Shown piece by piece: positions 25,187 to 44,486 of a DNA stretch of 45,261 nt. Position numbers and translations under genes: made by a program. The stretch is from Candidatus Scatovivens sp. (GTDB lineage: Bacteria > Bacillota > Clostridia > TANB77 > CAG-508), in NCBI GenBank assembly GCA_045630665.1, contig JAZQTI010000101.1, positions 1 through 45,261 of the forward strand. Direction: 5' to 3'. The first letter of the stretch is position 1; every line of letters begins with the position of its first letter. The notes under the pieces are model-generated. The model worked only from the letters and a program-made list of their open reading frames with translations. It searched no databases and was not told where the DNA came from.

Positions 25187-25239
25187 GCTAGATGGCAAAA
25201 CATTTTGTTCTCATAAAATTTGCAATGGAGGTAAGCATT

Positions 25240-25965
25240 ATGGATGAGAATCGTGTGTTCGAATTGCGCGTTCCTGAAGGCGCAGTAGTCAAAGACGTGA
25301 AATTCAATCCATATTGGGGCTTTGTCGCAGCAACGATGGAGGTCCTAGGGATTGCAATCACGTTTATCCGGACTGACTTCATAAAAGAGGTCAGGAGAGT
25401 CACATGGGATATGTCAGAAGTCCTTTCGGTATCTGATTACCATGAAGTGTTACCCAGTGTGGTTACCAAAAGTATCGAGAAATGCAAAGGAATTTTCATT
25501 TCCAGAGACTTTGCGATGGTGGACCCTGAGCTGGGAGAACTGGTTCCCAATTCTGGAGTTGTCAAAAGAGGTATGTGCTTCGATGAAGCCCCAAATGCTC
25601 TTCTGGAAATTCCCGGGATGGAAGCAAGTTTGCTTTATGGTGCGGTATATGATACCATTGGAAGATGGCTTATCGCAACCAAATCTCTTTCTTATGATGA
25701 ATGGGTCAACAGCCCTACAACTAAGAAAGAACAAGATGCAATTCTGGATCGAGAATGCGGCAACTGGACGATTCGAGAACTCTTCGGAGATATTTTCGAT
25801 ACTGAGTGGACAATGGAGTCCTATCAGCAGTATGCTGTGGCAAGAGAAGGAACACCGTTTTCCGACGGTGAAGCACTTTACCCCGCAAGAAAGCGGTATA
25901 CTTATCAAACCTGGATGAAACATTCCAAAGCAGCGGTAAGAACAATGTGGTCGTTTAAGGAGTGA
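25240..25965 (+). CDS. Hypothetical protein, 241 aa (island C; compositionally foreign, inside the dcw cluster)
   Basis: The ATG at 25240 lies 8 nt after GGAGG (25227-25231). The ORF is uninterrupted. G+C is 29/60 in nt 25261-25320, against 14/60 in murE nt 26221-26280. I recognise no family motif. Confidence 0.7.
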   Translation: MDENRVFELRVPEGAVVKDVKFNPYWGFVAATMEVLGIAITFIRTDFIKEVRRVTWDMSEVLSVSDYHEVLPSVVTKSIEKCKGIFISRDFAMVDPELGELVPNSGVVKRGMCFDEAPNALLEIPGMEASLLYGAVYDTIGRWLIATKSLSYDEWVNSPTTKKEQDAILDRECGNWTIRELFGDIFDTEWTMESYQQYAVAREGTPFSDGEALYPARKRYTYQTWMKHSKAAVRTMWSFKE

Positions 25966-27679: not shown

Positions 27680-28650
27680 TGACAACTCAGATAATATATT
27701 TGATTTTATCTTTTGTATTAACAGCTGTTTTAGGAAAAGTAATTATACCAATTTTAAAAAAATTAAAAGTTGGTCAAAATGAAAGAGCTTGTGGTCCAAG
27801 AGCACATTTAAAAAAACAAGGTACACCTACAATGGGTGGAATAATGATGATTATAACAATTATTGTTCTTGTTGCAATTTATTCAATTTTAAATCCACAA
27901 GAAGAATTACTAGTTCCAATTCTAGCAATTGCAATAGCAAGCTTAGGGTTTGGAATTGTAGGATTTATAGATGATTATAAAAAAGTTGTTTTGAAAAATA
28001 CAGAAGGATTAAATCCTAAATTAAAAATGTTAGGATTGCTTATAATTTCTGTTATATATACAATGTTTTTAATAAAGTACGTTGGGCTTGGAACAGACAT
28101 TATAATTCCAATAATAAATTATAATTTACAATTACCATTATGGATTTTTATACCATTTACAATATTTGTTATGTTAGGAAGTACAAATGCTGTAAACTTA
28201 ACAGATGGTGTTGATGGGTTAGCTGGAAGTGTTACAGCAATAATGGTTACAGCAATATCAATAATAGCTATGCAAGCTGGATATGAAAGTATTTCTTGTT
28301 TTGGAGCTATTGTTGTTGGAACATGTGGTGGATTTTTAATTTATAATTTTCATAAAGCTAAAGTAATGATGGGAGATACAGGTTCATTACTTTTAGGTGG
28401 AGTTATATCTAGTATGATGATTTATTTAAAAAATCCGTTATTACTAGTATTAATAGCTATAATTCCTGTAATTGAAACATTATCTGTTATTATGCAAGTT
28501 GTATATTTTAGATTTACAGGAAAAAGATTATTTAGAATGTCTCCATTACATCACCATTTTGAATTAACTGGATGGAGAGAAAATAGAGTTGTTGGTGTAT
28601 TTTCACTAATAACATTAATTGCATCAGTATGTGCAATACTTATAGTTTAA
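27679..28650 (+). CDS. mraY: Phospho-N-acetylmuramoyl-pentapeptide transferase
   Basis: The ATG overlaps the murE stop by 1 nt (TAATG). Motifs GTPTMGG, NAVNLTDGVDGLA, MGDTGS and PLHHHFE. Confidence 0.92.
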   Translation: MTTQIIYLILSFVLTAVLGKVIIPILKKLKVGQNERACGPRAHLKKQGTPTMGGIMMIITIIVLVAIYSILNPQEELLVPILAIAIASLGFGIVGFIDDYKKVVLKNTEGLNPKLKMLGLLIISVIYTMFLIKYVGLGTDIIIPIINYNLQLPLWIFIPFTIFVMLGSTNAVNLTDGVDGLAGSVTAIMVTAISIIAMQAGYESISCFGAIVVGTCGGFLIYNFHKAKVMMGDTGSLLLGGVISSMMIYLKNPLLLVLIAIIPVIETLSVIMQVVYFRFTGKRLFRMSPLHHHFELTGWRENRVVGVFSLITLIASVCAILIV

Positions 28651-28700
28651 GGTTTATAGATAAATCCAAAAAATCTAAATAAAAAAATATAGGTTAAAAA

Positions 28701-29870
28701 ATGGTAAAAAGAACAAAAGCAAAAAGATTCTCATTTTTATTAAATGGAAAATTCGATTATTCTATATTAATAATAACCCTATTACTTTTATGTATAGGGT
28801 TAATAATGTTATTATCAGCAAGTGCTCCAGTATCATTTTCAGAAAATGGAAATAGCTATGATTATGTAGTAAAACAAGGTGGGGTAGCATTATTAGGTTT
28901 AGCAGCAATGATAGTATTATCAAAAATTGATTATAGAATATACAGAAAATTAAAATGGTTAATATATATTGTTTTTGTTGCATTACTATTTTTAGTTGGT
29001 TTTATTGGAATTGGAGAAAATGGAGCAAGAAGATGGATTAATCTTTTTGGATTTTCATTCCAACCATCAGAGTTTGCGAAAGTTGCATTTATAATTTTTT
29101 ATGCATCACTTTTAACAGACATGAAAGAAAAAAATAAAATAAGAAAAATAGTACCTGGATTTATATATCCATTAATATTCTTAGGACCAATAGCATTTGC
29201 TCTTTTAAAATTGCAAAACCATTTTAGTTCAACATTTGTAATTGCTGCAATAACTTGTGTTCAAATGTTTGTTGCAGGTTCTTTATTTAGATATTTTATT
29301 GGAGCCGGAACATTTGTTATTGGTGCTTTTGTATTATATCTTCTAAGAAATATGGCAGCAGGAGAAGCAACTGACTTTAGATTTACTAGAATACAAACAT
29401 GGCTTAATGTAGAAGCTGATTTAACTGGTGCAGGATGGCAAATAAATCAAAGTTTATATGCTATAGGTTCAGGTGGATTATTTGGTTTAGGACTAGGAAA
29501 TAGTAAACAAAAATATTTATATTTACCAGAGCCACAAAACGATTTTATTTTTGCTGTATTAGCAGAAGAATTAGGCTTCATTGGTGCTATAGCAGTAATA
29601 ATTCTTTTCATATTGTTTATTTGGAGAGGAATTATAATTGCAATAAAAGCTGAAGATACATTTGGAAGCTTAATATCAATTGGTATAACAACAATGATAG
29701 GATTACAAGCAATAGTAAATATTGCAGTTGTAACAAATACAATGCCAGTAACAGGTATGCCATTACCATTCTTTAGTTATGGTGGTTCTGCAATGCTTGC
29801 CAACTTAATGGCAGTTGGAATTTTACTGAGTGTATCTAGAAACAGTAAGAAAAATAATAATAAAGGTTAA
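28701..29870 (+). CDS. ftsW: SEDS-family peptidoglycan polymerase (FtsW/SpoVE)
   Basis: Polytopic protein. QPSEFAK, LPEPQNDFIF and PLPFFSYGGS are SEDS motifs. It occupies the dcw position between mraY and murG. Confidence 0.85.
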   Translation: MVKRTKAKRFSFLLNGKFDYSILIITLLLLCIGLIMLLSASAPVSFSENGNSYDYVVKQGGVALLGLAAMIVLSKIDYRIYRKLKWLIYIVFVALLFLVGFIGIGENGARRWINLFGFSFQPSEFAKVAFIIFYASLLTDMKEKNKIRKIVPGFIYPLIFLGPIAFALLKLQNHFSSTFVIAAITCVQMFVAGSLFRYFIGAGTFVIGAFVLYLLRNMAAGEATDFRFTRIQTWLNVEADLTGAGWQINQSLYAIGSGGLFGLGLGNSKQKYLYLPEPQNDFIFAVLAEELGFIGAIAVIILFILFIWRGIIIAIKAEDTFGSLISIGITTMIGLQAIVNIAVVTNTMPVTGMPLPFFSYGGSAMLANLMAVGILLSVSRNSKKNNNKG

Positions 29871-29910
29871 TAGGACCTAAAAACCTAAATATATTTTAAG
29901 GATGTAGAAA

Positions 29911-31026
29911 ATGAAAGTTATCATTGCGGCAGCAGGAACTGGTGGACATATAAATCCAGGAATTGCGATTGCTAATAAAATAAAAGAAAAAGATCCAAAA
30001 TCTGAAATTATATTTATAGGAACTAATAGAGGATTAGAAAATGATTTAGTTCCTAGAGCTGGATATAAATTAAAAACAATTGATGTATATGGATTAAAAA
30101 AAGAATTTTCATTAACAAATATAAAACATATATTTCAAACTATTGCTAGTAGAAAAGATGTTAAAAAAATATTTGATGAATTTAAACCTGACCTAGTTTT
30201 AGGAACTGGTGGATATATATGTGGACCAGTATTTTATGTTGCTGTGTCTAGAAAGATTCCAACAATTCTTCATGAAAGTAATGCATATCCAGGAAAAGCT
30301 GTAAAAATGTTTTCAAAAAAAGTTAATAGTGTGTTAGTTGGATTTGAAGATACAAAATCAAAATTGGAAGGATGTAAAAATATAGTAGTAACAGGTACTC
30401 CTACAAAAATTAGAAAAATAGATGTATCAAAGACTAGAAAAAAAGAAATATTAGAAGAAATAGGCATAAAAAATGATTTACCAATTGTATTGATTTATGG
30501 TGGTAGTCAAGGTGCTCAAAGAATAAATGAAGCTGTTATAGATTTAATTACATCTAATAGAAATAAAGATTATCAAATAATTTGGGCAACAGGACCAAAA
30601 CAATATGATATAGTAAAAGAGAACTTTGAAAAACAAAATATTTATATAAATAGTATTAAAAATGTAAAAATATTACCATATATATACAATATGGAAGAAT
30701 TGATGAATATATCAGATTTGTTAGTTTGTAGAAGTGGTGCTATGACAATTACAGAAGTATCAATTGTAGGAAAACCAGCGATATTTATTCCGCTTCCATC
30801 AATATCAGCCAATAGACAAGAAGATAATGCACTTGTTCTTAAGAAAATAGGGGCTGCAAAAATGATATTAAATAATGAAGTAAATGGAACAAATTTAGCA
30901 GAAGAAATTGATGATATCATACATGATAAATTAGAACTTGATGAAATGGGGAAAATGGCAAATACAATTGCTCCATCGGACGTTGAAGAAAAAATTTATG
31001 AAGAAATAGTTAAAGTACTAAAGTAA
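29911..31026 (+). CDS. murG: UDP-N-acetylglucosamine--N-acetylmuramyl-(pentapeptide) pyrophosphoryl-undecaprenol GlcNAc transferase
   Basis: AAGTGGHINPGIAIA N-terminal G-loop, GGSQGA, and RSGAMTITE...G.P.I.IP. Confidence 0.9.
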   Translation: MKVIIAAAGTGGHINPGIAIANKIKEKDPKSEIIFIGTNRGLENDLVPRAGYKLKTIDVYGLKKEFSLTNIKHIFQTIASRKDVKKIFDEFKPDLVLGTGGYICGPVFYVAVSRKIPTILHESNAYPGKAVKMFSKKVNSVLVGFEDTKSKLEGCKNIVVTGTPTKIRKIDVSKTRKKEILEEIGIKNDLPIVLIYGGSQGAQRINEAVIDLITSNRNKDYQIIWATGPKQYDIVKENFEKQNIYINSIKNVKILPYIYNMEELMNISDLLVCRSGAMTITEVSIVGKPAIFIPLPSISANRQEDNALVLKKIGAAKMILNNEVNGTNLAEEIDDIIHDKLELDEMGKMANTIAPSDVEEKIYEEIVKVLK

Positions 31027-31061: not shown

Positions 31062-33011
31062 ATGGCCTCAGGTGAAAGTGAACAAGATTTATTAAAAGAT
31101 ATTGCAGAACAAATTGCCAAAAATCAAATGTCATTTGATTCGAAAAGTGAAGAAGAAAAACGAAAATTATTAGGAAAATTAGATATTATTGCTGCAAGCC
31201 AATTAAATGAATTACAAAAAGAATTTAATGCTTTGATTGGCGGAATTGAAGGTGAAATACCAGAAAATGCAAGAATAATAATCTTACAAGGCATTAGTGA
31301 CAGAGTTTCTAGTGAGAGAATAAAATCATTAGATAATATTTTTTCATCTAAAGATGTTCAGGTATTAGCATCAACAATTGTTACAGAAATAGTATCAAAG
31401 AATACCGACAAAGAAATAGTAGAAGATAAAGCAGACATATTAATTCTTGGAAAAAATCTGGAAATTGATAAAGATGAAATTCAAGAAAAATTATTAAATG
31501 ATTTATCTGAAAAGTATGATGGAAAATATACATTACCAGAGGAAATGAAAATGCAAGAAGAAGATATTGCTAATATAGTAAGTGAACTTGACGAAACAGA
31601 ACTTGCAAAAACAATTGATAAAGCTAATGGTGGAGACAAAAATTCTAGAATAGTAATTACAGCGTTAATGTCTGCTATGCCATTTGCAAAAACAACAGTG
31701 AAATTTGAAGAGTTGAGTGGTTCAGATAAAGAAATAGCACTTCGTTCATTAGACACTTTGGCACTTGCTTATGCTGAAATTGGAGATTCAAATCTTTTTG
31801 TTGCTGCACAAAAACTTTCTGAAAAATGGGGAGTTGAGATAATAACATATGATGAAAACGGTAAACCAACAATAGATAGAGAAAAAATAAAAGAATTTGC
31901 AAAGCAAAATAATATCAATTATAGCACTGCCAAAAAAGAAGATTTTGAGTTATATGATAAAGCGTACAAAAATTTAGATGGAGTAGATGATTTTACAATA
32001 GAAACTCAAATAACAGCAACTCAATATAGTTTAAATAGAAATATAGATATCTTTACACAAGAAATACGAAGTGGTAGAAAATTAGAAGAACTACAACCTC
32101 AAATAGATCTTATGTTTGAAGAGAATTTTGATGCGACTTTAATGGTTTTAAAAGATCTTGGTGAAGGATGGAAAGATGATACAGAAATTTCACCAGCAGA
32201 AAGAAATATGAGATTCTATATGTTTAATAAAGCAGCTTTACTATATGAAGGTGCTCAAAAAGGTGAAAATGATGGAGTTATAGATAATTTTACAGATGGT
32301 TATATGCAAGGAATTATTGATTCTTCAATTGATTTTATGATAAAATCTGGATTCGAAAACAAAGAGTTAATAGATAATATGCTTAGAGTTGCTCCTAATG
32401 AAGTTCAAAAGAAAATGAAAGATTCTAAATTTAGTCAATATGATTTAAAACCATCTACAGAATGTGAGCCAATAAAACAAGAGCAAGAACAAGATGATCC
32501 ACTTATGAAAAAAATAAAAAATTTATTAAAAACATTAAATAATAGAATTGATAATAGAGGAATTGATAATACATTAGATTATGTAAGTACTATGATTACA
32601 AGCACTTCTGATTTACCTACGAAAAAAGATTATATGAATGTAATGTTCAATATTTTAGAAAATAGAGAAAATTCGTATAATCCTAAAGAAATGGCAGCAA
32701 GAAAAGGCTTTTTCTCAGCTATTATAGCAGAAAGAATTTATGATGAACAAGCTTTGAAAAAAATGGTAGAAATAGATTCTACTTCTACCAAAGGAATACT
32801 TGACGATATGATTGAAAGACAAAATACTTTGAGTGAAAATAATATAGATGCTATAATGGATATAGGTAAGCAAATGAAAGAAGCAAAAGATACAAAAGTG
32901 TTAGAATCTGGAAAAGTTAGTGTAACTGACGTTGTTGAACATATTGTGGCAAACGAAGAAACAGAAAAAACTTTTGAGAACTCTGATCGTGATGATGATG
33001 ATGCAAGATAA
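31062..33011 (+). CDS. Large acidic orphan protein, 649 aa (paralog family member 1); last gene before the dcw-region terminator
   Basis: RBS AAGGAGAG 6 nt upstream. There is no terminator between murG and this gene. No signal peptide or TM segment. It contains YDENGKPTIDREKIKEF and the tail ...SDRDDDDAR. Confidence 0.75.
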   Translation: MASGESEQDLLKDIAEQIAKNQMSFDSKSEEEKRKLLGKLDIIAASQLNELQKEFNALIGGIEGEIPENARIIILQGISDRVSSERIKSLDNIFSSKDVQVLASTIVTEIVSKNTDKEIVEDKADILILGKNLEIDKDEIQEKLLNDLSEKYDGKYTLPEEMKMQEEDIANIVSELDETELAKTIDKANGGDKNSRIVITALMSAMPFAKTTVKFEELSGSDKEIALRSLDTLALAYAEIGDSNLFVAAQKLSEKWGVEIITYDENGKPTIDREKIKEFAKQNNINYSTAKKEDFELYDKAYKNLDGVDDFTIETQITATQYSLNRNIDIFTQEIRSGRKLEELQPQIDLMFEENFDATLMVLKDLGEGWKDDTEISPAERNMRFYMFNKAALLYEGAQKGENDGVIDNFTDGYMQGIIDSSIDFMIKSGFENKELIDNMLRVAPNEVQKKMKDSKFSQYDLKPSTECEPIKQEQEQDDPLMKKIKNLLKTLNNRIDNRGIDNTLDYVSTMITSTSDLPTKKDYMNVMFNILENRENSYNPKEMAARKGFFSAIIAERIYDEQALKKMVEIDSTSTKGILDDMIERQNTLSENNIDAIMDIGKQMKEAKDTKVLESGKVSVTDVVEHIVANEETEKTFENSDRDDDDAR

Positions 33012-33018
33012 TTAATAT

Positions 33019-33057
33019 AAAAATACATTTTAGTATTACTAAAATGTATTTTTGTTT
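33019..33057 (+). terminator. Intrinsic terminator ending the murE...649-aa transcription unit
   Basis: AAAATACATTTTA, loop GTATTAC, TAAAATGTATTTT, then TGTTTT. Confidence 0.75.
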
Positions 33058-33165
33058 TGTATTAAGATTTTGCAAATTTTGTTAATATATAAGAAATACT
33101 TGCAAAATAAATAATAATGATTTAAAATACATACGTAATAAAAAATCTTTAAGGGAGAAAAATAA

Positions 33166-35274
33166 ATGATTGATAAATTAGTTATAGTGGAGTCGCCTGC
33201 TAAAGCAAATACTATAAAAAAATTCCTTGGTGGAAAAAGCAAAGTGGTTGCTTCAATGGGACATATAAGAGATTTACCAAAATCAAAAATGGGAATCAAT
33301 ATCGAAAATGATTTCGAACCAGAATATATCAATATACGTGGAAAAGCTAGTTTAATTAATTCTTTAAAGAAAGATGCAAAAGATGCGAAAAAAGTTTATC
33401 TTGCAACTGACCCTGACCGTGAAGGAGAAGCTATTGCATGGCATTTAGCATATATTTTAGGAATTGATCCTGAAAGTATATGTAGAGTGACTTTTAATGA
33501 AATAACAAAAGAAGCTGTAAAAAACGGAATAAATAATCCAAGAAAAATAGATATAAATTTAACTGATGCTCAACAAGCAAGACGTGTATTAGATAGAATA
33601 GTTGGATATAAAATAAGTCCAGTATTATGGAAAAAAGTAAAAAGAGGCTTATCTGCTGGAAGAGTTCAATCTGTAGCAGTAAAATTGATTGTAGATAGAG
33701 AAGAAGAAATAGAAAAATTTATTCCAGAAGAATATTGGAATATTAATTTGATTGCTTCTGATAAAAAAACAAAAACAAAATTTAATTGTAAGTTTGTTGG
33801 TAAAAATGGAGAAAAAGTTGAACTTCATTCTAAAGAAGAAGTAGACCAAATTTTATCAGACTTAGAAAATGCAAAATATAAAGTTGTAGATGTAAAAAAA
33901 GGTGAGAGAAAAAGAAATCCTGCACCACCATTTACAACAAGTACACTCCAACAAGATGCATCAAGAAAATTAAATTTTGCATTAAAGAAAACAATGTCTG
34001 TTGCTCAAACATTATATGAAGGTGTTAAACTACCAGAATATGGAGATACAGGTTTAATTACTTATATGAGAACAGATTCAACAAGAATTTCAAATGAAGC
34101 AAGAGCTGCGGCCAAAGAACATATTTTAAATGTATATGGTGAAAACTATTATGAAAATAGATTTTATAAAACAAAATCTGAAGCACAAGATGCACATGAG
34201 GCAATAAGACCATCTCATATAGAACTAACACCAGAATCTATAAAAGATAGTTTGAGTTCTGATCAATATAAATTATATAAATTAATATATAATAGATTTA
34301 TGGCAAGTCAAATGGCTTCTGCAGTATATGATACAGTAACAGTTTCAATTGATGGAAATGAATATAACTTTAAAGCAAATGGTCAAACGATGAAATTTAA
34401 AGGTTATATGACTTTGTATGTTGAAAACGAAGAAAAAGAAGAATTTGAGAAAATACCAGAATTAGAAGTTGGTGAAGAAGTAAAAAAAGAAGAAATTGAA
34501 TCAAAACAAAGTTTTACAGAACCACCAGCAAGATATACTGAAGCAAGTTTAGTAAAAACTTTAGAAGAAAAAGGAATTGGAAGACCAAGTACTTATGCTC
34601 CAACAATAACTACTATATTAATGAGAAGATATATTGAAAAAGTACAAAAACAATTAATGCCAACTGATTTAGGAAAAGTTGTTAATAAGTTATTAATAGA
34701 AAATTTTGGAGATGTAATAAATGTAGAATTTACTGCAAAAATTGAAGAGGAATTTGATAAAGTTGCAGTAGGTGAAGAAAATTGGAAAAAAGTAATCAGA
34801 GAGTTTTACACACCTTTTGGAGAAACAGTGGATAAAGTAACAAAAGAATTAGAACATGTAACTCTTACATATGAAGAATCAGACACACCATGTGAAAAAT
34901 GTGGAAGAATGATGGTAATAAAATATGGAAGATTTGGTAAATTTTTAGCTTGTCCAGGATATCCAGAATGCCAAAATGCAAAACCAATTATAGAAACAAT
35001 TGATGTTCCATGTCCTGTTTGTGGTGGAACAGTTCAAATAAGAAAAACAAAGAAAAGACGTAATTATTATATTTGTGAGAAAAATGAAGGTATAGGCCAA
35101 GGATGTTATTATATTTCATGGAATAAACCTAAACAAGGAGAAAAATTTGTTCCAAATAATGAAATAGATATGGAATTATATGATCAAGATGTAAAAAAAA
35201 CTAAAAAAACAACCAAAGCTAAGACAACTAAAAAAGCAACATCAAAAACTAAAAAAGTAGCAAAGAAAAAATAA
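33166..35274 (+). CDS. topA: DNA topoisomerase I
   Basis: TOPRIM start LVIVESPAKA and DPDREGEAI. Active-site region GLITYMRTDS. C-terminal C4 zinc ribbons (CEKCG...CPGYPEC, CPVCGG) and a Lys-rich tail. Confidence 0.95.
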   Translation: MIDKLVIVESPAKANTIKKFLGGKSKVVASMGHIRDLPKSKMGINIENDFEPEYINIRGKASLINSLKKDAKDAKKVYLATDPDREGEAIAWHLAYILGIDPESICRVTFNEITKEAVKNGINNPRKIDINLTDAQQARRVLDRIVGYKISPVLWKKVKRGLSAGRVQSVAVKLIVDREEEIEKFIPEEYWNINLIASDKKTKTKFNCKFVGKNGEKVELHSKEEVDQILSDLENAKYKVVDVKKGERKRNPAPPFTTSTLQQDASRKLNFALKKTMSVAQTLYEGVKLPEYGDTGLITYMRTDSTRISNEARAAAKEHILNVYGENYYENRFYKTKSEAQDAHEAIRPSHIELTPESIKDSLSSDQYKLYKLIYNRFMASQMASAVYDTVTVSIDGNEYNFKANGQTMKFKGYMTLYVENEEKEEFEKIPELEVGEEVKKEEIESKQSFTEPPARYTEASLVKTLEEKGIGRPSTYAPTITTILMRRYIEKVQKQLMPTDLGKVVNKLLIENFGDVINVEFTAKIEEEFDKVAVGEENWKKVIREFYTPFGETVDKVTKELEHVTLTYEESDTPCEKCGRMMVIKYGRFGKFLACPGYPECQNAKPIIETIDVPCPVCGGTVQIRKTKKRRNYYICEKNEGIGQGCYYISWNKPKQGEKFVPNNEIDMELYDQDVKKTKKTTKAKTTKKATSKTKKVAKKK

Positions 35275-35275
35275 A

Positions 35276-35305
35276 AAAAAGCCAAGTTTAAACTTGGCTT
35301 TTTTA
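35276..35305 (+). terminator. Intrinsic terminator after topA
   Basis: AAAGCCAAGTTT pairs with AAACTTGGCTTT, followed by TTTT. Confidence 0.85.
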
Positions 35306-35385
35306 TTTATAAAATTATTATTGCTGCGGAAATAAATATAAGAAAAAAGTAATAGAAAAACAGAATAAATGTAATATTTCTGTTA

Positions 35386-35414
35386 TTGAATCAAGAAATG
35401 TTAATAGTTATAAT
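35386..35414 (+). promoter_or_regulatory. Sigma-A-type promoter for the orphan-orphan-trmFO operon
   Basis: TTGAAT (35386-35391), 17-nt spacer, TATAAT (35409-35414). Confidence 0.6.
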
Positions 35415-35481
35415 AAAATTATATTATTAGATGATTTAATGCGAAAATTGTTTTTTGTTAAAAAATAAATGGAGAAGTGTA

Positions 35482-37509
35482 ATGGATTTTAAAGAAGAAG
35501 AGAGAAAAAAAGTAAATGCAGATACAAAGCAAAAAATGAAAGAAGGAACAGAAGAAAGCTCACTAGTTGTTGAAGGTGGTGAGGTTATTGATGTTGTTGA
35601 TTTAATAAACAACATGGAAAATTCTGTTATAGCTGTAAGATTAAAAACTTTGTTTGAAAATGGAATAAGTGAATCTATGATAGAAAGTAGGTATCAAGAA
35701 TTGTCAAGTGGTGTTACTAATATGCAAACAGCACTTGATAATATGAGAACTGTTTGTGATTTGCTTTTACAATATCTTTCAGAGATACCAAATGGAATTA
35801 TTATTAATATGACTACAGGAGAAGTAGATGTTAAAAAAAGCTTAGAATCAGCTGTTGAATGTGGTATCTTAAGACCAGATGACATTTTAATTGTGGATCC
35901 ATTTAAAGAAAGATTTGAATTAACTCCAAAAGAGTCATTTGTAGAAACTATAATGAATTCAAAAATTTTTAGTACTGAAGAAAAACAAGATTTTTTGAGT
36001 GATTATAATAAATTTCTTAGAACAAATTATAGTTTGGGTTCTATAAGTCATAGTAAAAGTCGTGAAGATGATAAAAAATTGGATAAAGATTCTGAAGAAT
36101 TCTTGGCAAGTGAGATTGGTGAAACAAAAGAAGAACAAGAAAGACAAAACGAAAAAAGAGATTATTACAAAATGGATACTGTTGAAGACATGAGTTTCAT
36201 GCAAATGGTAATTTTCTTTGCAAAAAAAGACACTATTCCAGATATGAAGTTTGTTAATAAGAAACTAAAAAATTATGAAAATTCAAAATTTTATCAACGT
36301 GTAATTGGTGAAGACGGGAAGGTTGATTTTGATAAATTACAAGAATTTGAAAAAGAATGGTTAAAAGAATTTGAAGAAACTAATTTAAGAGATGAATTAA
36401 AAAGGTATAACTTATTTTTAAAAAATGAAAAGATTAATTTTAATGATTTAGATGATGTAAATAAAGCAAATTTAAGAGCTATATTAGCAAGAGGATACTT
36501 TTCTAAAAATGAAAGTAACAAAGAAATGCTTGAAAAATTATGTGAAAAAATAGGAATTCAGTCTAATGAAGAAGAGATTTTAAAAATTGTTGGAGTAAAT
36601 ACAATTGATGAGTTACAAGAATTTGCATCAGACCATAGTATTAACGAAGTAAATTATATGCAGCAAATTTCAGAAATGAAAAAATTTAAAAAAATGAGTC
36701 AAAGCGACAAGATGGTATTTGAACGACTAGATAAATTAAAGTTAGATATAAATCCTAATAATGTAGAAACAATTGCAAAACTATATGTAATGTATTCTGA
36801 AAAATCAAAAATGTATGATGAACGAAGCTTGGATTCAAAAATGTGTTTGGAAGTTGCTAATTCGATAGAAAAATATATGTATTATAACAAAGAATATTTT
36901 TCAGAATATATGACAATTTTAAATGAAAGTGGAAGAAAAATAAAAAATAAAATAAATTATGCTAATGTAAAAAGAGTATTAGGCCATAAAGAAACTAATG
37001 AAATTTCAGATAAAGGTGTAAAAGGCTTTGAAAAATTATTTGATGCAAAAATACTAGAATTAAAAGGTGAAGATGGGAAGATTACTCAGCAAGAATTTGA
37101 TCAATTTTTTGAAGAACAATCAGAAGAATTAGCAATATCTTATAATGAAGAAAAGAAAGCAAGGCAAGAGAAAAGAGAAGAAATAAAAGCTAAATATGCA
37201 GAAGATAATAATCCAAATGGAGGGGTTAATAATCAAAATGATAAAAAAACAAATAAATTTATGGCTTTTATAGGAAATATAGCCAAAAGAGTTACGTCAT
37301 TATTTAAAAAGAATGCAGTACCATTATTAGAAAAAGGAAAAGACGATACAGAAGAGAAAATAGATTCTGAAAAAACAAATGCAGAAATGAAGGATAATAA
37401 AAATAAATTAGATTATATAAAAGTAGATAAAACACCAACTATACAAATGCCACAAACAACTGAAATAGAAAATGAAGATAAAGAAAAACCTATAGATGTA
37501 GGAAGATAG
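35482..37509 (+). CDS. Large acidic orphan protein, about 675 aa (paralog family member 2)
   Basis: The ATG at 35482 follows GGAGAAG; the ORF-track TTG at 35455 has no RBS. It contains SKFYQRVIGEDGKVDFDKLQEFEKEW, GEDGKITQQEFDQFF, the amphipathic basic segment NKFMAFIGNIAKRVTSLFKK, and the tail ...KPIDVGR. Confidence 0.75.
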   Translation: MDFKEEERKKVNADTKQKMKEGTEESSLVVEGGEVIDVVDLINNMENSVIAVRLKTLFENGISESMIESRYQELSSGVTNMQTALDNMRTVCDLLLQYLSEIPNGIIINMTTGEVDVKKSLESAVECGILRPDDILIVDPFKERFELTPKESFVETIMNSKIFSTEEKQDFLSDYNKFLRTNYSLGSISHSKSREDDKKLDKDSEEFLASEIGETKEEQERQNEKRDYYKMDTVEDMSFMQMVIFFAKKDTIPDMKFVNKKLKNYENSKFYQRVIGEDGKVDFDKLQEFEKEWLKEFEETNLRDELKRYNLFLKNEKINFNDLDDVNKANLRAILARGYFSKNESNKEMLEKLCEKIGIQSNEEEILKIVGVNTIDELQEFASDHSINEVNYMQQISEMKKFKKMSQSDKMVFERLDKLKLDINPNNVETIAKLYVMYSEKSKMYDERSLDSKMCLEVANSIEKYMYYNKEYFSEYMTILNESGRKIKNKINYANVKRVLGHKETNEISDKGVKGFEKLFDAKILELKGEDGKITQQEFDQFFEEQSEELAISYNEEKKARQEKREEIKAKYAEDNNPNGGVNNQNDKKTNKFMAFIGNIAKRVTSLFKKNAVPLLEKGKDDTEEKIDSEKTNAEMKDNKNKLDYIKVDKTPTIQMPQTTEIENEDKEKPIDVGR

Positions 37510-37528
37510 TATTATAAAAAGGGAATAT

Positions 37529-39889
37529 ATGGATAATCAAACAAGAAAAATAACAGATGATGAATTTAATATTTTTGTAGAAAGCATATATAGACAACAA
37601 ATAGAAGAAGAAATAATGAATTCTATTTATGGAAAACAAATTGCTCAATTTGAAAAACTTGGAATTGGAATAGGGATTGAAGATATTGTTAGCAATTATA
37701 TAGCTATTGCTGGTATGAAGTATAACAAAGTAGGTAATGTTGTTTTAGAAGAAAGTTTATTAGCAGAAGTACATGCTAATAATTTAGAGGTAATAAGCAA
37801 AGCTCTAGGAGTAGATTTAACAAGATTATCACAAACAGAGATGGAGAATGTGCTTGCTAATACCGATTATGCATATAAAATTGCACAAAATCAAACAAAA
37901 GAAGAAGGCAAATTTATAAGAAATATAGATAAGATACTAGATGAAAATCTAGTAGTAAATAAGGAAATAACAGAAATAATAAAGAATATAGAATATCTAA
38001 ACATTCCTGAAGCCAAATTTGCTCTTAGTGCAGATGAAATGTATTATGTTTTAACAAGAATGGGTGTTTCAGAAGAAGAAGCTAAAGAACAAGTTGAAAA
38101 ACAAGAAAAAATGGTTGTAGAAACTTTCGTTGGAACAACAGCAGATGTAAGAATAATGGAAGCAGTGTTTTATGGACATTTGATTGCTACAGGTGAATCT
38201 GAATTATCAGAAGAAGAATTTATGAAGTATTGTAATGCCGATATAGATACATTTAAAACTTCAAAATTTTACTCCAATATAGTAGATGAAAATGGACAAA
38301 TAAGTTTAGAAAAAATAGAAGAATTTTTTCAACAATTTGTTCAAAAAAGAAATGATTCAGAATTGACAACAAACTTAGAGAGGTATCACTCATATAAAAC
38401 ATTACCTCAAGATGGAAGAGAAAAGTTTTTCAAAACATTATTAATAGCATATAAATCTGGTGATGAGATTAAAGGCCAAAATGCTAAGGTTTTAGCTGGA
38501 AAGTTTGGATGGGATGTGTTTGATGAAAATGGAGACTTTGATCAAAATAAATTGCAACGTATAGGAATATTAATGTTTGGACCTGAATTTAATATAGATG
38601 AAACTGTGGAAAAGGCCACATTTAATGATAAAACATTTTTAGATCTTATGAACAGATTCGAACAATCAATTATTAAAGCTGGTGGAAGTATAGAAGCCAA
38701 GAGTTTTGAAGAGGTTAATAAATTCAAAGCAAAGGCAAAAGAAAAAGAAGTAATTTTATGTAGTAAAAAAGAAGATATAACATTAAATGTCTTAAGCGGA
38801 ATGAATATGACTCCAGAACAAATTATGGCATTATATTGTAAATTTAGGACATTAGAATTAAATGAAAGACAAATAGTACAATTAAATAAAGCGCCAAAAG
38901 AGTTTACAGCAAAATCTGTAAATAATCCTCAATACAATGGAGTTGCAGAAATACTAAAAAAGTATATACTAGAAAGACCAGAACAATTTACAGAATATTT
39001 AAGTGAAAAAGGTGAATTTAAAGGTAAAACTGTATTAGATATGTTGGATGCTAAAAAATTTTCTTTTAAAGAAGAAACAGATATAGCAGCTGCGTTTGAA
39101 CATATTAGATTCCAAACAAAAGGAATAGATAAAAGGGTAGAAGAAAAAAGCGAAGAAATAAAAGCACTTAATTCTAAGTTGTTTGAGTTAAGAGAAAAAG
39201 GAAAAGAGAATTGTACTAACGAAGAAATAAGAACATTATTTAGAGATGCAAAAAAATTACAAAAAGATGATGTACTTAGAACTGAAATATTGCAGAAATT
39301 AAAAGATTTTGATCCTGAAATGTTTGATAAAAAATTCAAAAGATCAAATGTAGAAAATGTAATTGGAGAAGGCAAAGCTATTTTGTATGGTAAAATTGCT
39401 ATTGGGCTTAGAAAAGCTTTTGTAGTAATGCCACAAAGAATATTTAATAAAAATTATAGAAATATGGATATTATAGGGGTAGATAATTCTATATTAAAAA
39501 GATGGCAAAGGAATCAAAAAAAACAAGATAAAAATGTTGCTAATGAAAAAGAAAATAATAATCCAAATAATTTACCAGCAGTAAAAAAAGTAACTGTTTT
39601 TGATAAAATAAAAAATATGTTTAAAGGAAAAAAAGAAGAAGTAGCGAATAATATAGAGGAAAAAGAAGAAATAAAATCAGAAAAAGAAACTACTCAAGGA
39701 CAAGTTTCTGTATCAACTGGTATAAGAATGGAATCAATAGATACAACTATGATTGATGAAAATACACAAGAAACACAAAGTGTATTTGATACTAGATATA
39801 AAGCAGAAACTCCAGTTGTTCAAGAAAATTCTGATCAAAAAGATACACTAGAAGATGGTGAAAGAACATCAACTGATGAAGGGCGTTAA
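37529..39889 (+). CDS. Large acidic orphan protein, 786 aa (paralog family member 3)
   Basis: The gene starts 19 nt after the upstream stop. It is colinear with member 2: [26 protein letters not shown]...LERYHSY and [16 protein letters not shown]. It has the amphipathic segment [13 protein letters not shown] and the tail ...TSTDEGR. Confidence 0.75.
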
Positions 39890-39891
39890 AT

Positions 39892-41286
39892 ATGAATGAA
39901 ATTATTGTAATAGGTGGAGGGTTAGCAGGATGTGAAGCGGCTCTTCAAATTGCTAAAAGAAAAATAAAAGTAAAATTATATGAAATGAAACCATATAAAT
40001 TCTCTCCTGCACATAGTAATGAAGATTTGGCTGAAATAGTATGTAGTAATTCATTTAAATCCAATTTGATTACAAATGCATGTGGATTATTAAAAGAAGA
40101 ATTAAGAATATTAGGGTCAGAACTTATAAAAGTAGCAGATAATAATTCTGTTCCTGCTGGACAAGCTTTGGCTGTTGATAGAGAAAAATTCTCAAAAGAA
40201 ATAACAGATATTATTAATAAAAACGAATATATAGAAGTTGTTAGAGAAGAAATTACTCAAATACCAAAAAATGCAATTGTAATTATTGCAACTGGTCCTC
40301 TAACCTCAGAAAAACTATCAGAAGAAATTGCTAAATTAACAGGTAATGATAAACTATACTTTTATGATGCTGCGGCTCCAATAGTAGAAAAAGATTCAAT
40401 AAATATGGATATTGCTTTTTATGGTGATAGATATACTCAAGAAAGAGAAAAAGAAGAATCAATAGAGGATTGGAAAGAAAGAGTTAAAGATCATAAAGGA
40501 AGTTATATAAATCTTCCAATGAATAAAGAAGAATATGAACTTTTCTATAATGAACTTGTAAATGCAGAAGTTGTTAATTTACATGAATTCGAAAAAAGAG
40601 AAATTTTTGAAGGGTGTATGCCAGTTGAGATAATGGCTAAAAGAGGAATAGATACATTAAGATTTGGACCATTAAAACCTGTTGGGTTCACAGATCCAAG
40701 AACTGGAAAAAGACCATATGCAGTTATTCAATTAAGACAAGATAACCAAGAAGGAAATATATATAATATAGTAGGATTTCAAACTAATTTGAAATTTGGA
40801 GAACAAAAAAGAGTATTTTCTTTGATTCCAGGACTTGAAAATGCTAATTTCATAAAATATGGAGTTATGCATAGAAATACATATATTAATTCTACTTATA
40901 TATTAGACAATACATATAATATGAAAGAAAATAGAAATATATTTTTTGCAGGACAAGTTACTGGGGTTGAAGGATATGTGGAATCAATATCTTCTGGATT
41001 TGTAGCAGGAATAAATGCTGCAAAGCTATTTGAAATAAAAAATCAAATACAAGAAGATACATTATGTATTGAAAAATATGAATCTGAAAAAATTGTTTTT
41101 TCTAATCAAACTGTAATAGGCGCACTGGCATTATATATATCAACAGAAAATGATAAATTTCAACCTATGAATGCGAATTTTGGTATTTTGCCAGAGTTAG
41201 AAGAAAAGATAAAAGACAAAAAATTAAGATATAATCAATTAGCTCAAAGAGCATTAGATGATATAAATTTAAATAAATATATATAA
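39892..41286 (+). CDS. trmFO: Methylenetetrahydrofolate--tRNA-(uracil54-C5)-methyltransferase
   Basis: FAD loop [29 protein letters not shown] and [14 protein letters not shown] are TrmFO/Gid motifs. The ATG lies 2 nt after the upstream stop, which suggests translational coupling. Confidence 0.9.
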
Positions 41287-41320
41287 ATGTGGATAAATTC
41301 TAGTTAATTTACATAAAATA

Positions 41321-41349
41321 TTGACTTTTTGTTACAAAAATGTTACAAT
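41321..41349 (+). promoter_or_regulatory. Sigma-A-type promoter for the small ORF and coiled-coil gene
   Basis: TTGACT (41321-41326), 17-nt spacer ending in TGT, TACAAT (41344-41349). Confidence 0.65.
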
Positions 41350-41386
41350 GGAAAAGTAAGAATTTATTAAGTAAAGGAGATTTTGT

Positions 41387-41497
41387 ATGGAAGAAAAATT
41401 AAATGAAGAAGGCGTAAAATTTGTTAAAGACCTAGTAAAAACAAAACTTGAGCTTAATGAAATTATCACAGAATGTGAAGTTAAAAAAGCAGAATAA
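41387..41497 (+). CDS. Small ORF, 36 aa (MEEKLNEEGVKFVKDLVKTKLELNEIITECEVKKAE); below the ORF-track size cut-off
   Basis: AAGGAGA (41374-41380) lies 6 nt upstream of the ATG. Its initiation region is nearly identical to that of the downstream 980-aa gene. Confidence 0.45.
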   Translation: MEEKLNEEGVKFVKDLVKTKLELNEIITECEVKKAE

Positions 41498-41543
41498 TTT
41501 TTGCTTGCTGAAATATAAAATATAAAAATAAAAGGAGATTTTT

Positions 41544-44486
41544 ATGGAAGAAAGAACTTTAGAAGAACTAAATAAAGAATATGTAGATTTAGTTAAAAAA
41601 GTTAGAGAAATTAAAGGTGAATTAGAAGCAGCAAATGCAAAAAAGGAAGCTGCTAACACTAGTTATGAAGAAGCATCAAGTACATATAGTGAAAAGGACT
41701 TAGCATATAAAGCTTTATTACCAGTACTTGAAGCAGCAGAAAAAGCAAATTATTCTGAAGCTGTTATAGAAGCAATGAGAAAACAAGTAGAAGATGCAAA
41801 AGCTGAATTAGATAAAGCTCAAACTGCATTAGATGAAAAAAGAACAGAACAAGAACAAATGGCTGAAGCATATAATGAAATTGAACAGAGAGCTCAAACT
41901 CAAAGCGATAGACTAGGAGTAATTGTTCAAAGTTTTGCAGGAAATGAAATTATAAACCAAGCTTTAAGAGATGAAATGGAATATGAATATCAAAAACTTA
42001 TTGATAAAAAACAAAAAGAACTTGCAAAAACTGAAGAACTAAAAACAAAAATAAATGAAGACCCTGAAATAAAACAAGGTGTAGGAGAACTTACAAAATT
42101 ACTTGAAGACTTTGAAAAAGCAAGAGCTAATGCAACAATAGATAATCCAGGTGAATTAGTAAAAATTGCATCAAAAATAAAAGTTCAAAGAAATGCGATT
42201 AAAACCCAAATGAGAAAATTAGGATTAAGAACTGGAAAAATAGAACCAGATGCAATTGATGATATGACAAGATTAGTTGATGACAAAGGTAGAATGGTAA
42301 TCAGAGAATTAGATTCTAGAGCTGAAGTTCAAACTGCTGAAATTGCAAGAGTAGAAGCAGAAAGAGATGAAGCAATGAGCAATCTTGCAGCATCATTAGC
42401 GGTAGGAAAAGATGAAAAAGTAGAAGGATATGATGAGGCTAAACAAGAAATTGAGAGAATGACAACAGAGTTACAATCTTTAAGAACACAACATGGAGAG
42501 AAGAAAACTAAGATTAAAGAAATTGAAGAAAAAACAAGAGAATTGTCTTCAGAATTAGATGGAATCAAATTAGATCCAGTAATGGCTGCAAAACTTGCTG
42601 AATTACAAACTCAAAAAGCAGAAATTGAAAAAGAAAAAGTTCCTTTAATTGAAAATCCAAAAAGAGCTGAATTACAAGCTCAAATTGTTGAATTAAATCG
42701 TCAAAAAAATACAGCTGGTAGTGGACAAGTTGAAACTGAAGCATACAAAGAAGCAAAAAAAGCTTTAGAAAAAGCTAGAAGAGATTTAGAATATGAGAGA
42801 AAAAATCCATCACTTGTAGTATTTTTTGGAAATAAAGATCAAATAATAGATAATCCAGAGTACAAAGTTGCAGAAGCAAGATTAGGAATACTTGAAAATA
42901 ATTATGAGTCACTTTTAAATACTATAATAGAATCTGATGAAGAGTTAAAAAGAATTGATGATGAATATGCAGATATCGAACAACAAGAAGATGAAATAAA
43001 AGCAAGAAGAGAAGAACTTAATGGAAGTGATTCTAATAAAAAAGAAGAGTTATATACAAATTATGTTGGAGAAGAATTATATCCAGACATAACAGACCCA
43101 GAAACAGAACAAGGAAAAGCTTTTGAGGAATATAAAGCTGCTGAATTAGAAATCAGAAAAGCAATGCTTGCTATACAAAAAGATCCTTCAGAAGCTAATA
43201 TTGAAAGATTAGCAACTGCAAAAAGTGTATTAGGTGAAAAAACATCTGCATTAAAAGTTGAATTAACAATTGCAAATGGGACAAGTTTTTCACCATCAAC
43301 TGAAGCGATACACAATTATTTAACAGGAGTATTAGAATCTGAAATAATTGGAGACTTAGATGCAGAAGTAGATGAAGCATATAATTTAAAAGCTGCAGAT
43401 AATGCAATTTCAGTGTTAGCTTCAAAATTAAAAAGAACAGATAAAGAAGCGATATCAGAATTAAGAAGATCTTCTAATGAAATTGCTAAATATTTAGATG
43501 TTATGCTATTAGGACAACCATATGATATTGATGAGTTTTTAGAAGCCGTTGATGTTCATAGCCAAAATATGAGACTTTTTGATGACCCTGAAAAAGTACG
43601 AGCTACTTTAGTTGGATCAAATGAAATGTTAGAAACAGAAAATACTTCATTATTTGGTTTTGGATTTATAAGAAATTTATGGTCAAAATTAACAATGCCA
43701 AAAGTAGATGAAGAATATGATTTACCAAAAAATAAAAGACCAGAAGTGTATGATGAATTAGAAGGAACACAAACTGAACTTAGAGAATTAGAAGCAAAAG
43801 AAAAAGGAATTGCAGAACGTAAAACAGAAGTTGATAGAGCGTTTAGAGAAAGACTTGAAGCAGTGATGTCTCCTGAACAAAAAGAAAGCTTATCAAAGAA
43901 AGATAGAGAAATTAAAGATATAAGAAAAAAATTAAAGGTTTTACCAAGAAAAATTAATAAAACAAAATTAGAAAGATTAGAAGCAGAAGTGGCTACTGCA
44001 ACAACTAAATTGAATTCAACACCACAATTTGAATCAACAATTGATGTAGGACAAATAGATTCAGAAATTACTAGATTAACAAGCGAAATGGAAAAAGAAC
44101 CTGAGCAAGTTGTAGATCCAGAAAAAGAATCTGATAGAAAAGAGAGATTAGCCCAAAAACAAGCTGAAATTGATGGATTAGGAGTAACAGAGAATCCTAG
44201 AGTTGCTGAAATTACGGCAATGCTACAACAATTAGAAATTGATTCTCAAAATGGAACAACAGAACTAACAGAGCTTGAAAGTAAAATTACTACATTGTCT
44301 AAAAATTTGGAAATTAAACAAAGAGCATTTGCGATATTAGAACTTGCAAAAAATAAAATTAAAAATTTAATACATATTAAAAATCCAAAATTTATATCTA
44401 ATAGAAATGCTAAAAGTGTTGCAAATCAATTAGCAGAACATGTAAAATCTAATGCTAAAAAACAAGCAAGAGGCGAAAGAGAATAA
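41544..44486 (+). CDS. 980-aa coiled-coil protein with no enzymatic motif recognised
   Basis: RBS AAGGAGA. The sequence is mostly heptad-like and E/K/A/L/Q-rich, with no P-loop, TM segment or signal peptide. One hydrophobic/amphipathic patch is SLFGFGFIRNLWSKL. Confidence 0.8.
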   Translation: MEERTLEELNKEYVDLVKKVREIKGELEAANAKKEAANTSYEEASSTYSEKDLAYKALLPVLEAAEKANYSEAVIEAMRKQVEDAKAELDKAQTALDEKRTEQEQMAEAYNEIEQRAQTQSDRLGVIVQSFAGNEIINQALRDEMEYEYQKLIDKKQKELAKTEELKTKINEDPEIKQGVGELTKLLEDFEKARANATIDNPGELVKIASKIKVQRNAIKTQMRKLGLRTGKIEPDAIDDMTRLVDDKGRMVIRELDSRAEVQTAEIARVEAERDEAMSNLAASLAVGKDEKVEGYDEAKQEIERMTTELQSLRTQHGEKKTKIKEIEEKTRELSSELDGIKLDPVMAAKLAELQTQKAEIEKEKVPLIENPKRAELQAQIVELNRQKNTAGSGQVETEAYKEAKKALEKARRDLEYERKNPSLVVFFGNKDQIIDNPEYKVAEARLGILENNYESLLNTIIESDEELKRIDDEYADIEQQEDEIKARREELNGSDSNKKEELYTNYVGEELYPDITDPETEQGKAFEEYKAAELEIRKAMLAIQKDPSEANIERLATAKSVLGEKTSALKVELTIANGTSFSPSTEAIHNYLTGVLESEIIGDLDAEVDEAYNLKAADNAISVLASKLKRTDKEAISELRRSSNEIAKYLDVMLLGQPYDIDEFLEAVDVHSQNMRLFDDPEKVRATLVGSNEMLETENTSLFGFGFIRNLWSKLTMPKVDEEYDLPKNKRPEVYDELEGTQTELRELEAKEKGIAERKTEVDRAFRERLEAVMSPEQKESLSKKDREIKDIRKKLKVLPRKINKTKLERLEAEVATATTKLNSTPQFESTIDVGQIDSEITRLTSEMEKEPEQVVDPEKESDRKERLAQKQAEIDGLGVTENPRVAEITAMLQQLEIDSQNGTTELTELESKITTLSKNLEIKQRAFAILELAKNKIKNLIHIKNPKFISNRNAKSVANQLAEHVKSNAKKQARGERE

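Follow-up and report, generated by a model that had tools for sequence, protein, structure and literature searches.

Three large orphan genes, here called M1, M2, and M3, were found to be hypervariable cassettes among near-identical strains. They lie on contig JAZQTI010000101.1 of Candidatus Scatovivens sp. (assembly GCA_045630665.1), whose full length (positions 1 to 45,261) makes up the window, that is, the whole stretch of DNA analyzed in this study. M1 (31062..33011; 649 residues) is located between murG and topA in a position called slot 1, while M2 (35482..37509; 675 residues) and M3 (37529..39889; 786 residues) occupy slots 2 and 3 between topA (33166..35274) and trmFO (39892..41286). 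The next large ORF (open reading frame) after trmFO is CC980 (41544..44486), an acidic coiled-coil orphan of 980 residues without a Pfam match. All window features given here are on the plus strand. An earlier note, made from the sequence alone, had described M1, M2, and M3 as a rapidly diverging family of three paralogs.

The related loci were compared with the window by protein identity. Two of them come from close strains (L006 and L020) and three are more distant (L001, L002, and L010). In L006, the housekeeping proteins are 97.4-99.6% identical to those of the window, while M1 is 48%, M2 89%, M3 89%, and CC980 85% identical. In L020, TopA (98.4%) and TrmFO (99.8%) are nearly unchanged, while M3 is 72% and CC980 82% identical. 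The M2 slot of L020 (3788-6406) holds an 872-residue member of a "long" subfamily which is 33% identical to M2 in the head only, and its slot-1 protein (3-1364) matches only the C-terminal domain of M1 (29% over 96 residues, E-value (E) 1.5e-5). The rapid divergence claimed in the earlier note is borne out in the three distant loci, where the neighboring proteins are 70-94% identical and M1-M3 are 25-46% identical or undetectable. There, M1 is 29% identical (L001) or undetectable and M2 is 26-46% identical. M3 is 25-39% identical in L001 and L002 and has no tblastn match in L010, and CC980 is 37% identical in L001.

The boundaries of the divergent blocks are sharp. The DNA identity between L006 and the window is 97-99% in the flanks and drops to 58-69% exactly over the body of M1. 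The synonymous divergence (dS) of M1 from L006 is 0.82, while that of the neighboring genes is 0.04-0.26. The ratio of nonsynonymous to synonymous divergence (dN/dS) from L006 is 0.50 for M1, 0.26 for M2, 0.16 for M3, and 0.33 for CC980. Most housekeeping genes have a dN/dS of 0.02-0.08, with values up to 0.22 for two small ORFs of the division and cell wall (dcw) cluster. Compared with L020, M3 is a mosaic: codons ~80-580 have a proportion of synonymous differences (pS) of 0.4-0.7, while codons 580-786 are nearly identical, and trmFO and the end of the window are 99-100% identical at the DNA level. The N-terminal region of M1 (residues 1-115; 31062..31406) is nearly invariant in alignment A3. 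Its proportion of nonsynonymous differences (pN) from L006 is 0.04-0.09 and its pS is 0.20-0.55, indicating strong constraint. No region with pN clearly above pS was found in sliding windows. Thus, judging from the dS and dN/dS values, the mosaicism, and the constrained head of M1, the genes are functional, and old, deeply divergent alleles have been recombined between near-identical backgrounds.

Acidic orphan proteins

M1, M2, and M3 are real genes, because they have a dN/dS of 0.16-0.5 and have kept their position in all 13 related contexts. The three large ORFs of the earlier note are all present. M2 was assigned the ATG start with a GGAG ribosome-binding site; an alternative TTG start at 35455 would give 684 residues. 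The proteins are acidic, as the note had said, with isoelectric points of 4.55 (M1), 5.00 (M2), and 5.12 (M3). They have no signal-like N-terminus and no transmembrane (TM) segment (maximum Kyte-Doolittle hydropathy over 19 residues, 1.28), and the lack of an enzymatic motif agrees with the lack of any Pfam or NCBIfam match. In scans of M1-M3 and CC980, nothing rose above noise in Pfam, NCBIfam, PADLOC, or PHROGs, and no PADLOC model matched M1-M3 even at E <=0.1. Profile searches of the PDB sequences with alignments A1-A3 found nothing.

The structure prediction and fold search proposed in the earlier note gave all-alpha AlphaFold2 (AF2) models. The M2 model has a predicted local distance difference test score (pLDDT) of 68, with a core at residues 200-480 reaching ~85, and the M1 model has a pLDDT of 63. 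Foldseek searches of PDB with the M1 and M2 models and of BFVD with the M2 model found nothing below E 1e-3. The best hits (E 5e-3 to 9e-2; template modeling scores 0.1-0.2) were generic helical repeats or solenoids and designed proteins. In summary, M2 and M3 are real, lineage-restricted, modular alpha-helical proteins of predicted cytoplasmic location, and M1 is a protein of the same kind in a separate family. The architecture of M2 and M3 was drawn from alignments A4 and A5, the pattern of HMMER matches, and the disordered tail with one isolated helix in the AF2 model.

Relationship among M1, M2, and M3

Are the three proteins paralogs? The all-against-all hhalign comparison proposed in the earlier note was performed. 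M2 and M3 match with a probability of 97.9% (E 5e-13) in the first alignments and of 99.9% (E 1.6e-37, 482 columns) after the alignments were enriched from related loci. BLASTP also links them over the SKFY region (E 4e-9), and in the joint alignment A4 the two run colinearly from the N-terminal domain through to the final residues. The sequences thus indicate that M2 and M3 are full-length paralogs, adjacent (19 nucleotides (nt) apart) and colinear as the note had claimed. The note had also pointed to an 11-mer shared by the DNA of the two SKFY sites, at 36283 and 38261. The 11-mer is real; as a meaningful link between the sites it was rejected, as 13 of 100 shuffles give at least two matches.

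M1 compares with M2 and M3 at E 0.35-1.1 in BLASTP and at E 0.006-0.045 with a probability of at most 6% in hhalign, using both the tool's own alignments and the enriched local ones. The hhalign scores are little better than those of the hhalign controls TopA and CC980 (E 0.2-0.8). The similarity covers only ~60 residues, L..L..AY....La.kWGvei...DENG....d..KI.ef. In M1, the motif YDENGKPTIDREKIKEF, a helix-hairpin-helix (31845..31895), is the sole region with a weak local likeness to M3 (hhalign E 0.006, probability 6%), and the AF2 model has a small beta bridge at residues 261-271. A single paralogous family of all three was therefore rejected because of these insignificant scores; the claim of three paralogs is right for M2 and M3, while M1 belongs to a separate family whose paralogy with them is not demonstrable.

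The slot-1 proteins are almost unrecognizable to one another. Several of them are linked pairwise by BLASTP (E 1e-4 to 2e-6) via a C-terminal domain of ~130 residues, which in M1 spans residues ~480-630 (32499..32951) and is common to slot-1 proteins. Through this domain, M1 is linked in the same E range to slot-1 proteins of L014 and L020; the individual matches include E 6e-6 to L014-641 and the L020 match given above. Local jackhmmer searches had not joined the slot-1 proteins, which pairwise BLASTP later joined, and N-terminal Smith-Waterman alignments with shuffles among them were only suggestive. The top cationic amphipathic window of M1 is the helix LMKKIKNLLKTLNN (residues 481-494; 32502..32543; hydrophobic moment (muH) 0.77, charge (z) +4). 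In the AF2 model, the helix (480-499) lies internally in the chain, ahead of a folded helical domain. M1 ends with the acidic tip NSDRDDDDAR (32982..33008), and orthologs end with DDDDVR, EEPGGR, or DDDEGR. As a separate observation, L001 has an extra orphan of 605 residues (3557-5374) between murG and the M1 ortholog. Apart from weak matches to other slot-1 proteins (E 0.003-0.03), nothing significant was found for this orphan, which contains NIVYSNGKIDLMELTEEYK and ends with FDDSEDGR.

Head, middle, and tail of the M2/M3 superfamily

The proteins are rare. A word-indexed search of 5.8 billion clusters found 4 clusters for M1, 11 for M2, and 5 for M3, and in an exhaustive HMMER search, the M2 profile matched 64 of 1.84 billion representatives at E <=1e-3. 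Together with the conserved synteny described below, these counts bear out the lineage-specific module of the earlier note. Most of the 64 proteins are 800-1500 residues in length and match mainly in the N-terminal ~130 residues. No relatives were found on viral contigs, and none of 48 relatives scanned individually has a Pfam match. The named related records are all "MAG: Clostridia bacterium" (metagenome-assembled genome, MAG), one of them from sheep rectum. In the literature, nothing relevant was found on the tail peptide motifs or on topA/trmFO synteny in Clostridia, beyond the membrane-targeting sequence of MinD.

The head is the most conserved part of the superfamily and the sole match region in most of the 64 distant relatives. 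In M2, it spans residues ~28-135 (35563..35886; RLKTLFENGI...IPNGIIIN..TGEVD...GI, with invariant columns in alignment A2). The consensus of the head over ~130 residues in alignment A5 is V.D..D.L....KL..L...GIT.EMI...Y......AL..L..VF..LA..IS..PNGIVID..TG..D...S..QA...GI. The middle is helical and varies in length from 300 to more than 1000 residues. The middle module of the M2/M3 type starts with SKFY..DENG.ID..K..EF and contains NK.NL...LARGYFS...K..F..LC..LGI. It begins in M2 with SKFY...GEDGKVDFDKLQEFEKEW (36283..36381), which is aligned with the M3 copy of the motif (38261..38359), and the SKFY-DENG module is tandemly duplicated in the relatives P0012 and P0028.

A C-terminal tail module is visible in nearly all superfamily members. 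Four elements make up this module: a lead-in of the form LP.hydrophobic.K, a single or double cationic amphipathic helix, a short motif, and an acidic tip. The first helix is often followed by (R/Q)LTDG or LL..G, and the second is frequently KKGFFSRLFGKK. A strongly cationic amphipathic 11-mer lies 40-140 residues from the C-terminus in 35 of 46 representatives, an 8.1-fold enrichment over the rest of the proteins. The pattern G-hydrophobic-hydrophobic-x-K/R-hydrophobic-hydrophobic-G/N, exemplified by KKGFFSRLFGKK, occurs in nine representatives. By a crude pattern, the motif aromatic-x-x-hydrophobic-K/R-V-D/E is present in 22 of the 46, and the acidic tip is net negative in 44 of them.

In M2, the top cationic amphipathic window is the helix KFMAFIGNIAKRVTSLFKK followed by PLLEKG (37255..37311; muH 0.68, z +4). 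In the AF2 model, this helix (residues 592-608) stands isolated in a low-pLDDT, probably disordered region, and its position is conserved across the family. The tail motif LDYIKVDKT (37408..37434) recurs ~30-50 residues before the C-terminus in about half of the representatives, and the acidic tip is NEDKEKPIDVGR (37471..37506). In M3, the helix (39590..39634) is preceded by NLPAVKK and contains an 11-mer with a muH of 0.73; the helix ranks third among the cationic windows of the protein. The M3 tail motif (39785..39814) is aligned with that of M2 in A4 and includes F753, invariant in A1. The acidic tip of M3 is encoded at 39851..39886. Thus, the amphipathic segments named in the earlier note are the top cationic windows of M1 and M2 and the third-ranked one of M3, and the acidic tails closing with (A/G)R are present in all three proteins and kept in orthologs. 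The membrane-targeting sequence of Escherichia coli MinD is KGFLKRLFGG (PMC5471200). The family peptide is similar to it in pattern and in hydrophobic moment (muH 0.50 against 0.55), a similarity of peptide properties alone. The likeness to MinD/FtsA-type helices that the earlier note had seen in each protein gains support from the wider family in M2 and M3, and gains none in M1, whose helix is internal.

Conserved slots and transcription units

Members of the M2/M3 superfamily lie between topA and trmFO in 13 of 13 independent contexts, with a DNA of 24-30% GC, when the conservation of gene context was checked as the earlier note had proposed. The slot usually holds a pair of genes and sometimes a single gene (L018 and L021), encoding proteins of 675-1508 residues. 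The upstream anchor topA (topoisomerase I; Pfam Toprim, Topoisom_bac, and Zn_ribbon_Top1 in the orthologous loci) is 82-98% identical in the loci holding most of the gene and 71% identical for a 34-residue fragment in L019. The downstream anchor trmFO is conserved and has Pfam GIDA in the orthologous loci. Wherever the contig reaches far enough, dcw genes precede topA, and trmFO is followed by one or two further large Pfam-less proteins and then rpsL-rpsG-fusA. Slot 1 holds M1-like proteins in most genomes, two in L001 (605 and 655 residues), and none in L010, where murG abuts topA directly. The topA and trmFO genes are adjacent in Bacillus subtilis. For this reason, M2 and M3 seem to have been inserted, within this clade, between two old neighbors, and do not look like a functional grouping.

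The window is an ordinary chromosomal region with a GC content of ~27%. Its plus-strand order is mraZ-rsmH-ftsL-like-pbp-(257-residue ORF)-murE-mraY-ftsW-murG-M1-topA-M2-M3-trmFO-CC980-small TM protein. The murG and M1 genes are 35 nt apart, with no hairpin in between, and the start of trmFO lies 2 nt past the M3 stop, which agrees with the spacing described in the earlier note. An AT-rich hairpin with a T-run, a self-inverted match directly 3' of the M1 stop (33019..33053), is kept in L006 and is the probable terminator of the murG-M1 transcript. A hairpin with a GC stem and flanking T/A runs 3' of topA (35275..35304) resembles a bidirectional terminator. A promoter-like TTGAAT-17-TATAAT lies upstream of M2 (35386..35414); it is a weak call, since chance predicts 65 such sites and 67 were found. 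The gap sizes (19 nt for M2-M3), the two hairpins, and the promoter-like site support three predicted transcription units, [..murG-M1], [topA], and [M2-M3-trmFO]. An Rfam scan and a tRNA scan of the window were both empty.

Possible functions

What could such proteins do? My best guess, held tentatively and below even confidence, is that they are membrane-tethered modular scaffolds kept as divergent alleles. M2 and M3 would be placed on the inner face of the cell membrane, where the amphipathic helices may act like that of MinD as a reversible membrane tether. Conserved partners would be bound by the conserved head and by the tail motif with the acidic tip, and head and tail may be each other's partners. 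The variable middle would serve as a spacer or as a surface for strain-specific interactions, and the allelic diversity may be kept by diversifying or frequency-dependent selection on this middle.

Several points weigh against this guess. The membrane tether is proposed from the properties of peptides alone, and the M1 helix, being internal in the model, may just pack onto the domain that follows. A structural scaffold is not obviously expected to swap alleles between near-identical strains, and the pN/pS ratio near 1 in the center of M1 may mean weak constraint and not selection for diversity. The AF2 models were built on shallow alignments of 4-14 sequences and have a pLDDT of 63-68. As matches to consensus sequences in a genome with 27% GC, the promoter and terminator calls carry little weight on their own.

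Known systems resemble the proteins in part. Like MinD, and also FtsA and SepF, the M2/M3 family has a short cationic amphipathic helix near the C-terminus, often KKGFFSRLFGKK, which by analogy is probably a reversible tether. In contrast to these proteins, the family has no P-loop ATPase, actin-like, or SepF domain, and its helix is often doubled and is not terminal, being followed by a disordered acidic tail of 60-90 residues. Neither M1-M3 nor the 48 relatives have a CbiA, ParA, or MinD match in Pfam, so that the peptide alone is similar to the MinD/ParA ATPases. No Pfam or NCBIfam match, PDB sequence match, or fold match to FtsA, SepF, or DivIVA was found. As for SMC/Rad50-like coiled coils, M1-M3 have no match and CC980 gives sub-threshold noise (16 bits against cut-offs of 567-700).

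PopZ, DivIVA, Scy, FilP, and the HMW1/HMW2 proteins of the Mycoplasma terminal organelle are lineage-specific polar or cortical scaffolds. Like them, M1-M3 are large, acidic, helical, enzyme-free, clade-restricted, and modular, and have disordered acidic segments. Unlike them, M1-M3 would be helical bundles or solenoid-like and not long coiled coils, and no sequence or fold match links the two groups. Hypervariable alleles between near-identical strains are not a known feature of those scaffolds.

If the guess is true, neither Pfam, NCBIfam, and PDB nor the fold libraries contain a detectable relative of the superfamily, which is confined to a clade of uncultured low-GC gut Clostridia. It would combine a cytoplasmic MinD-like tether, fixed positions in housekeeping operons, and strain-level allelic replacement, which is unusual; such replacement is normally seen only for surface antigens, receptors, and defense genes. 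The defined alleles, conserved flanks, and candidate membrane-binding peptide would offer a handle on diversifying selection on intracellular proteins of gut commensals. The novelty claimed here covers the protein family, not a mechanism, and draws on negative searches and on models of moderate confidence.

Exposure outside the cytoplasm without a signal peptide, with the hypervariability resulting from host immunity or phages, is rather unlikely. The routes might be type VII-like export, holin- or lysis-dependent release, or spore-surface assembly from the mother-cell cytoplasm. Allelic replacement and mosaicism are typical of exposed antigens and receptors, and the proteins come from animal-gut MAGs. 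In these helical acidic proteins, the conserved head, the C-terminal motif, and the acidic tip could be an export or targeting signal. The sharply bounded divergent blocks with conserved flanks, the mosaic alleles, and the old lineages also resemble loci of hypervariable antigens and polymorphic toxins. Unlike those loci, M1-M3 lack a signal peptide, a toxin domain, an immunity gene, and a secretion-system gene, and they are conserved at both protein ends. Their genes form part of housekeeping operons, in the same orientation as their neighbors and closely spaced with them. Neither M1-M3 nor the window has a secretion-system, WXG100, or LXG domain; no WXG100 or LXG Pfam match was found in M1-M3 or in the other 20 window ORFs scanned. 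Moreover, the conserved element is a MinD-like amphipathic helix and no known export signal, and the tail motif fits Y-x-x-x-D/E in some members only.

A broader idea, which I consider doubtful, is that the fixed slots of the dcw-topA-trmFO-rpsL backbone hold membrane-tethered, enzyme-free helical proteins as exchanged cassettes for strain-specific recognition from the cytoplasmic face. The variable middles would be the recognition surfaces, directed for example at phage proteins or serving kin discrimination, and such a hypervariable system, anchored in the chromosome, would be one not described before.

An intracellular conflict system, such as a phage-defense sensor or decoy or a device for strain discrimination, whose middle is a recognition surface in an arms race, is quite improbable. 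It would account for the constant head and tail around a variable middle, for the persistence of old alleles (dS of M1, 0.82), and for the exact match between the hypervariable blocks and the orphan genes, between which the housekeeping genes are 99-100% identical. However, M1-M3 have no PADLOC or PHROGs match, the 48 members have no nuclease, NTPase, or other effector domain, and viral contigs carry no relatives. The stable vertical synteny in core operons is unlike that of defense islands, and the sliding windows lack the excess of pN over pS.

The earlier note had suggested that the proteins are core structural parts of cell division or chromosome topology, acting with the dcw genes and TopA. 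In its favor, M1 probably shares a transcript with murG, M2 and M3 stay between topA and trmFO throughout the clade, and several division proteins have a MinD/FtsA-like amphipathic helix as a hallmark. This role is nevertheless as improbable as a conflict system. Its basis was position alone, and the M2-M3 pair seems to have been inserted between genes that are old neighbors. Slot-1 proteins are almost unrecognizable between genomes, slots 2 and 3 together hold one or two genes for 675-1508 residues, and M1 is absent in L010, with murG abutting topA. Extreme divergence and allele swapping are also unlike core parts of the divisome.

Calcium binding is essentially excluded. The note had read the DENG-type segments as degenerate half-loops of EF-hands or dockerins. 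The segments (D/E-D/E-N-G-x-hydrophobic) do recur in a conserved helix-loop-helix, and their G and hydrophobic residue match positions 6 and 8 of an EF-hand loop. In A4, residues E277 and G279 do not vary, and the AF2 model of M2 has a short beta bridge at the DENG segment. However, the ligand positions 1 and 12 are not acidic (I or V at position 1, and K instead of E at position 12, in M2 and M3), and the loops are single and unpaired. The strict motif occurs 0-2 times per protein and is enriched over shuffles only in M3. No EF-hand or dockerin model matched the window proteins at E <=1 or the 48 relatives at E <=0.01; the dockerin test likewise gave no Pfam match in either set and no signal peptide.

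Finally, spurious or decaying frames in AT-rich DNA, which the low-complexity-like composition, the absence of known domains, and the very fast divergence might suggest, are effectively refuted by the intact long ORFs at the same slots where housekeeping proteins are only 70-90% identical, by a dN/dS below 1, by the strongly conserved head and tail modules, and by the M2 core with a pLDDT of ~85.

Neighboring genes and minor observations

CC980 has no homology to M1-M3, yet it is alike in being Pfam-less, fast-evolving, and mosaic in its divergence, with 82-85% identity in the near-identical strains. In mid-protein, the amphipathic helix FGFIRNLWSKL precedes PKVDEEY (FGFIRNLWSKLTMPKVDEEY), reminiscent of the K-V-D/E tail motif of M2. 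The L001 counterpart of CC980 is split into two ORFs (350 and 533 residues). Among the relatives of M2, P0014 (419 residues) shares 93% identity with the initial third of M2, yet the collection labels it with Pfam PF01432 (peptidase M3). The entry is probably chimeric, called on a short contig.

The dcw cluster of the clade is joined directly to topA. In the window (26207-31026), L010, and L014, it runs murE-mraY-ftsW-murG, and murF, murD, murC, ftsQ, ftsA, and ftsZ are not in line. The murG gene is split into two ORFs (239 and 107 residues) at 8850-9965 in L006 and intact in its sister contig L007, so an assembly error or a frameshift is probable. The 257-residue ORF between pbp and murE (25192-25965) lies in a patch of 43-47% GC, in a genome of 27% GC, and has no Pfam match. 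A similar unnamed ORF is found at this position in L006, L007, and L021, while L002 and L010 have only a short gap. The ORF resembles a piece of foreign DNA inserted in the dcw operon.

Near the start of the window, 2516-6364 encodes a 1282-residue protein with DUF11 repeats and Ig-like matches; genes for a 409-residue cadherin-like protein and for a response regulator/GGDEF protein come next. The locus probably encodes surface proteins and has no relation to M1-M3. In most related loci, an ORF of 36-55 residues lies right after trmFO, ahead of the next large orphan (20365-20475 in L006, 18419-18577 in L010, 9124-9288 in L015, 16014-16175 in L002, and 16769-16936 in L021). The counterpart of this position in the window is the 257-nt gap at 41287-41543.

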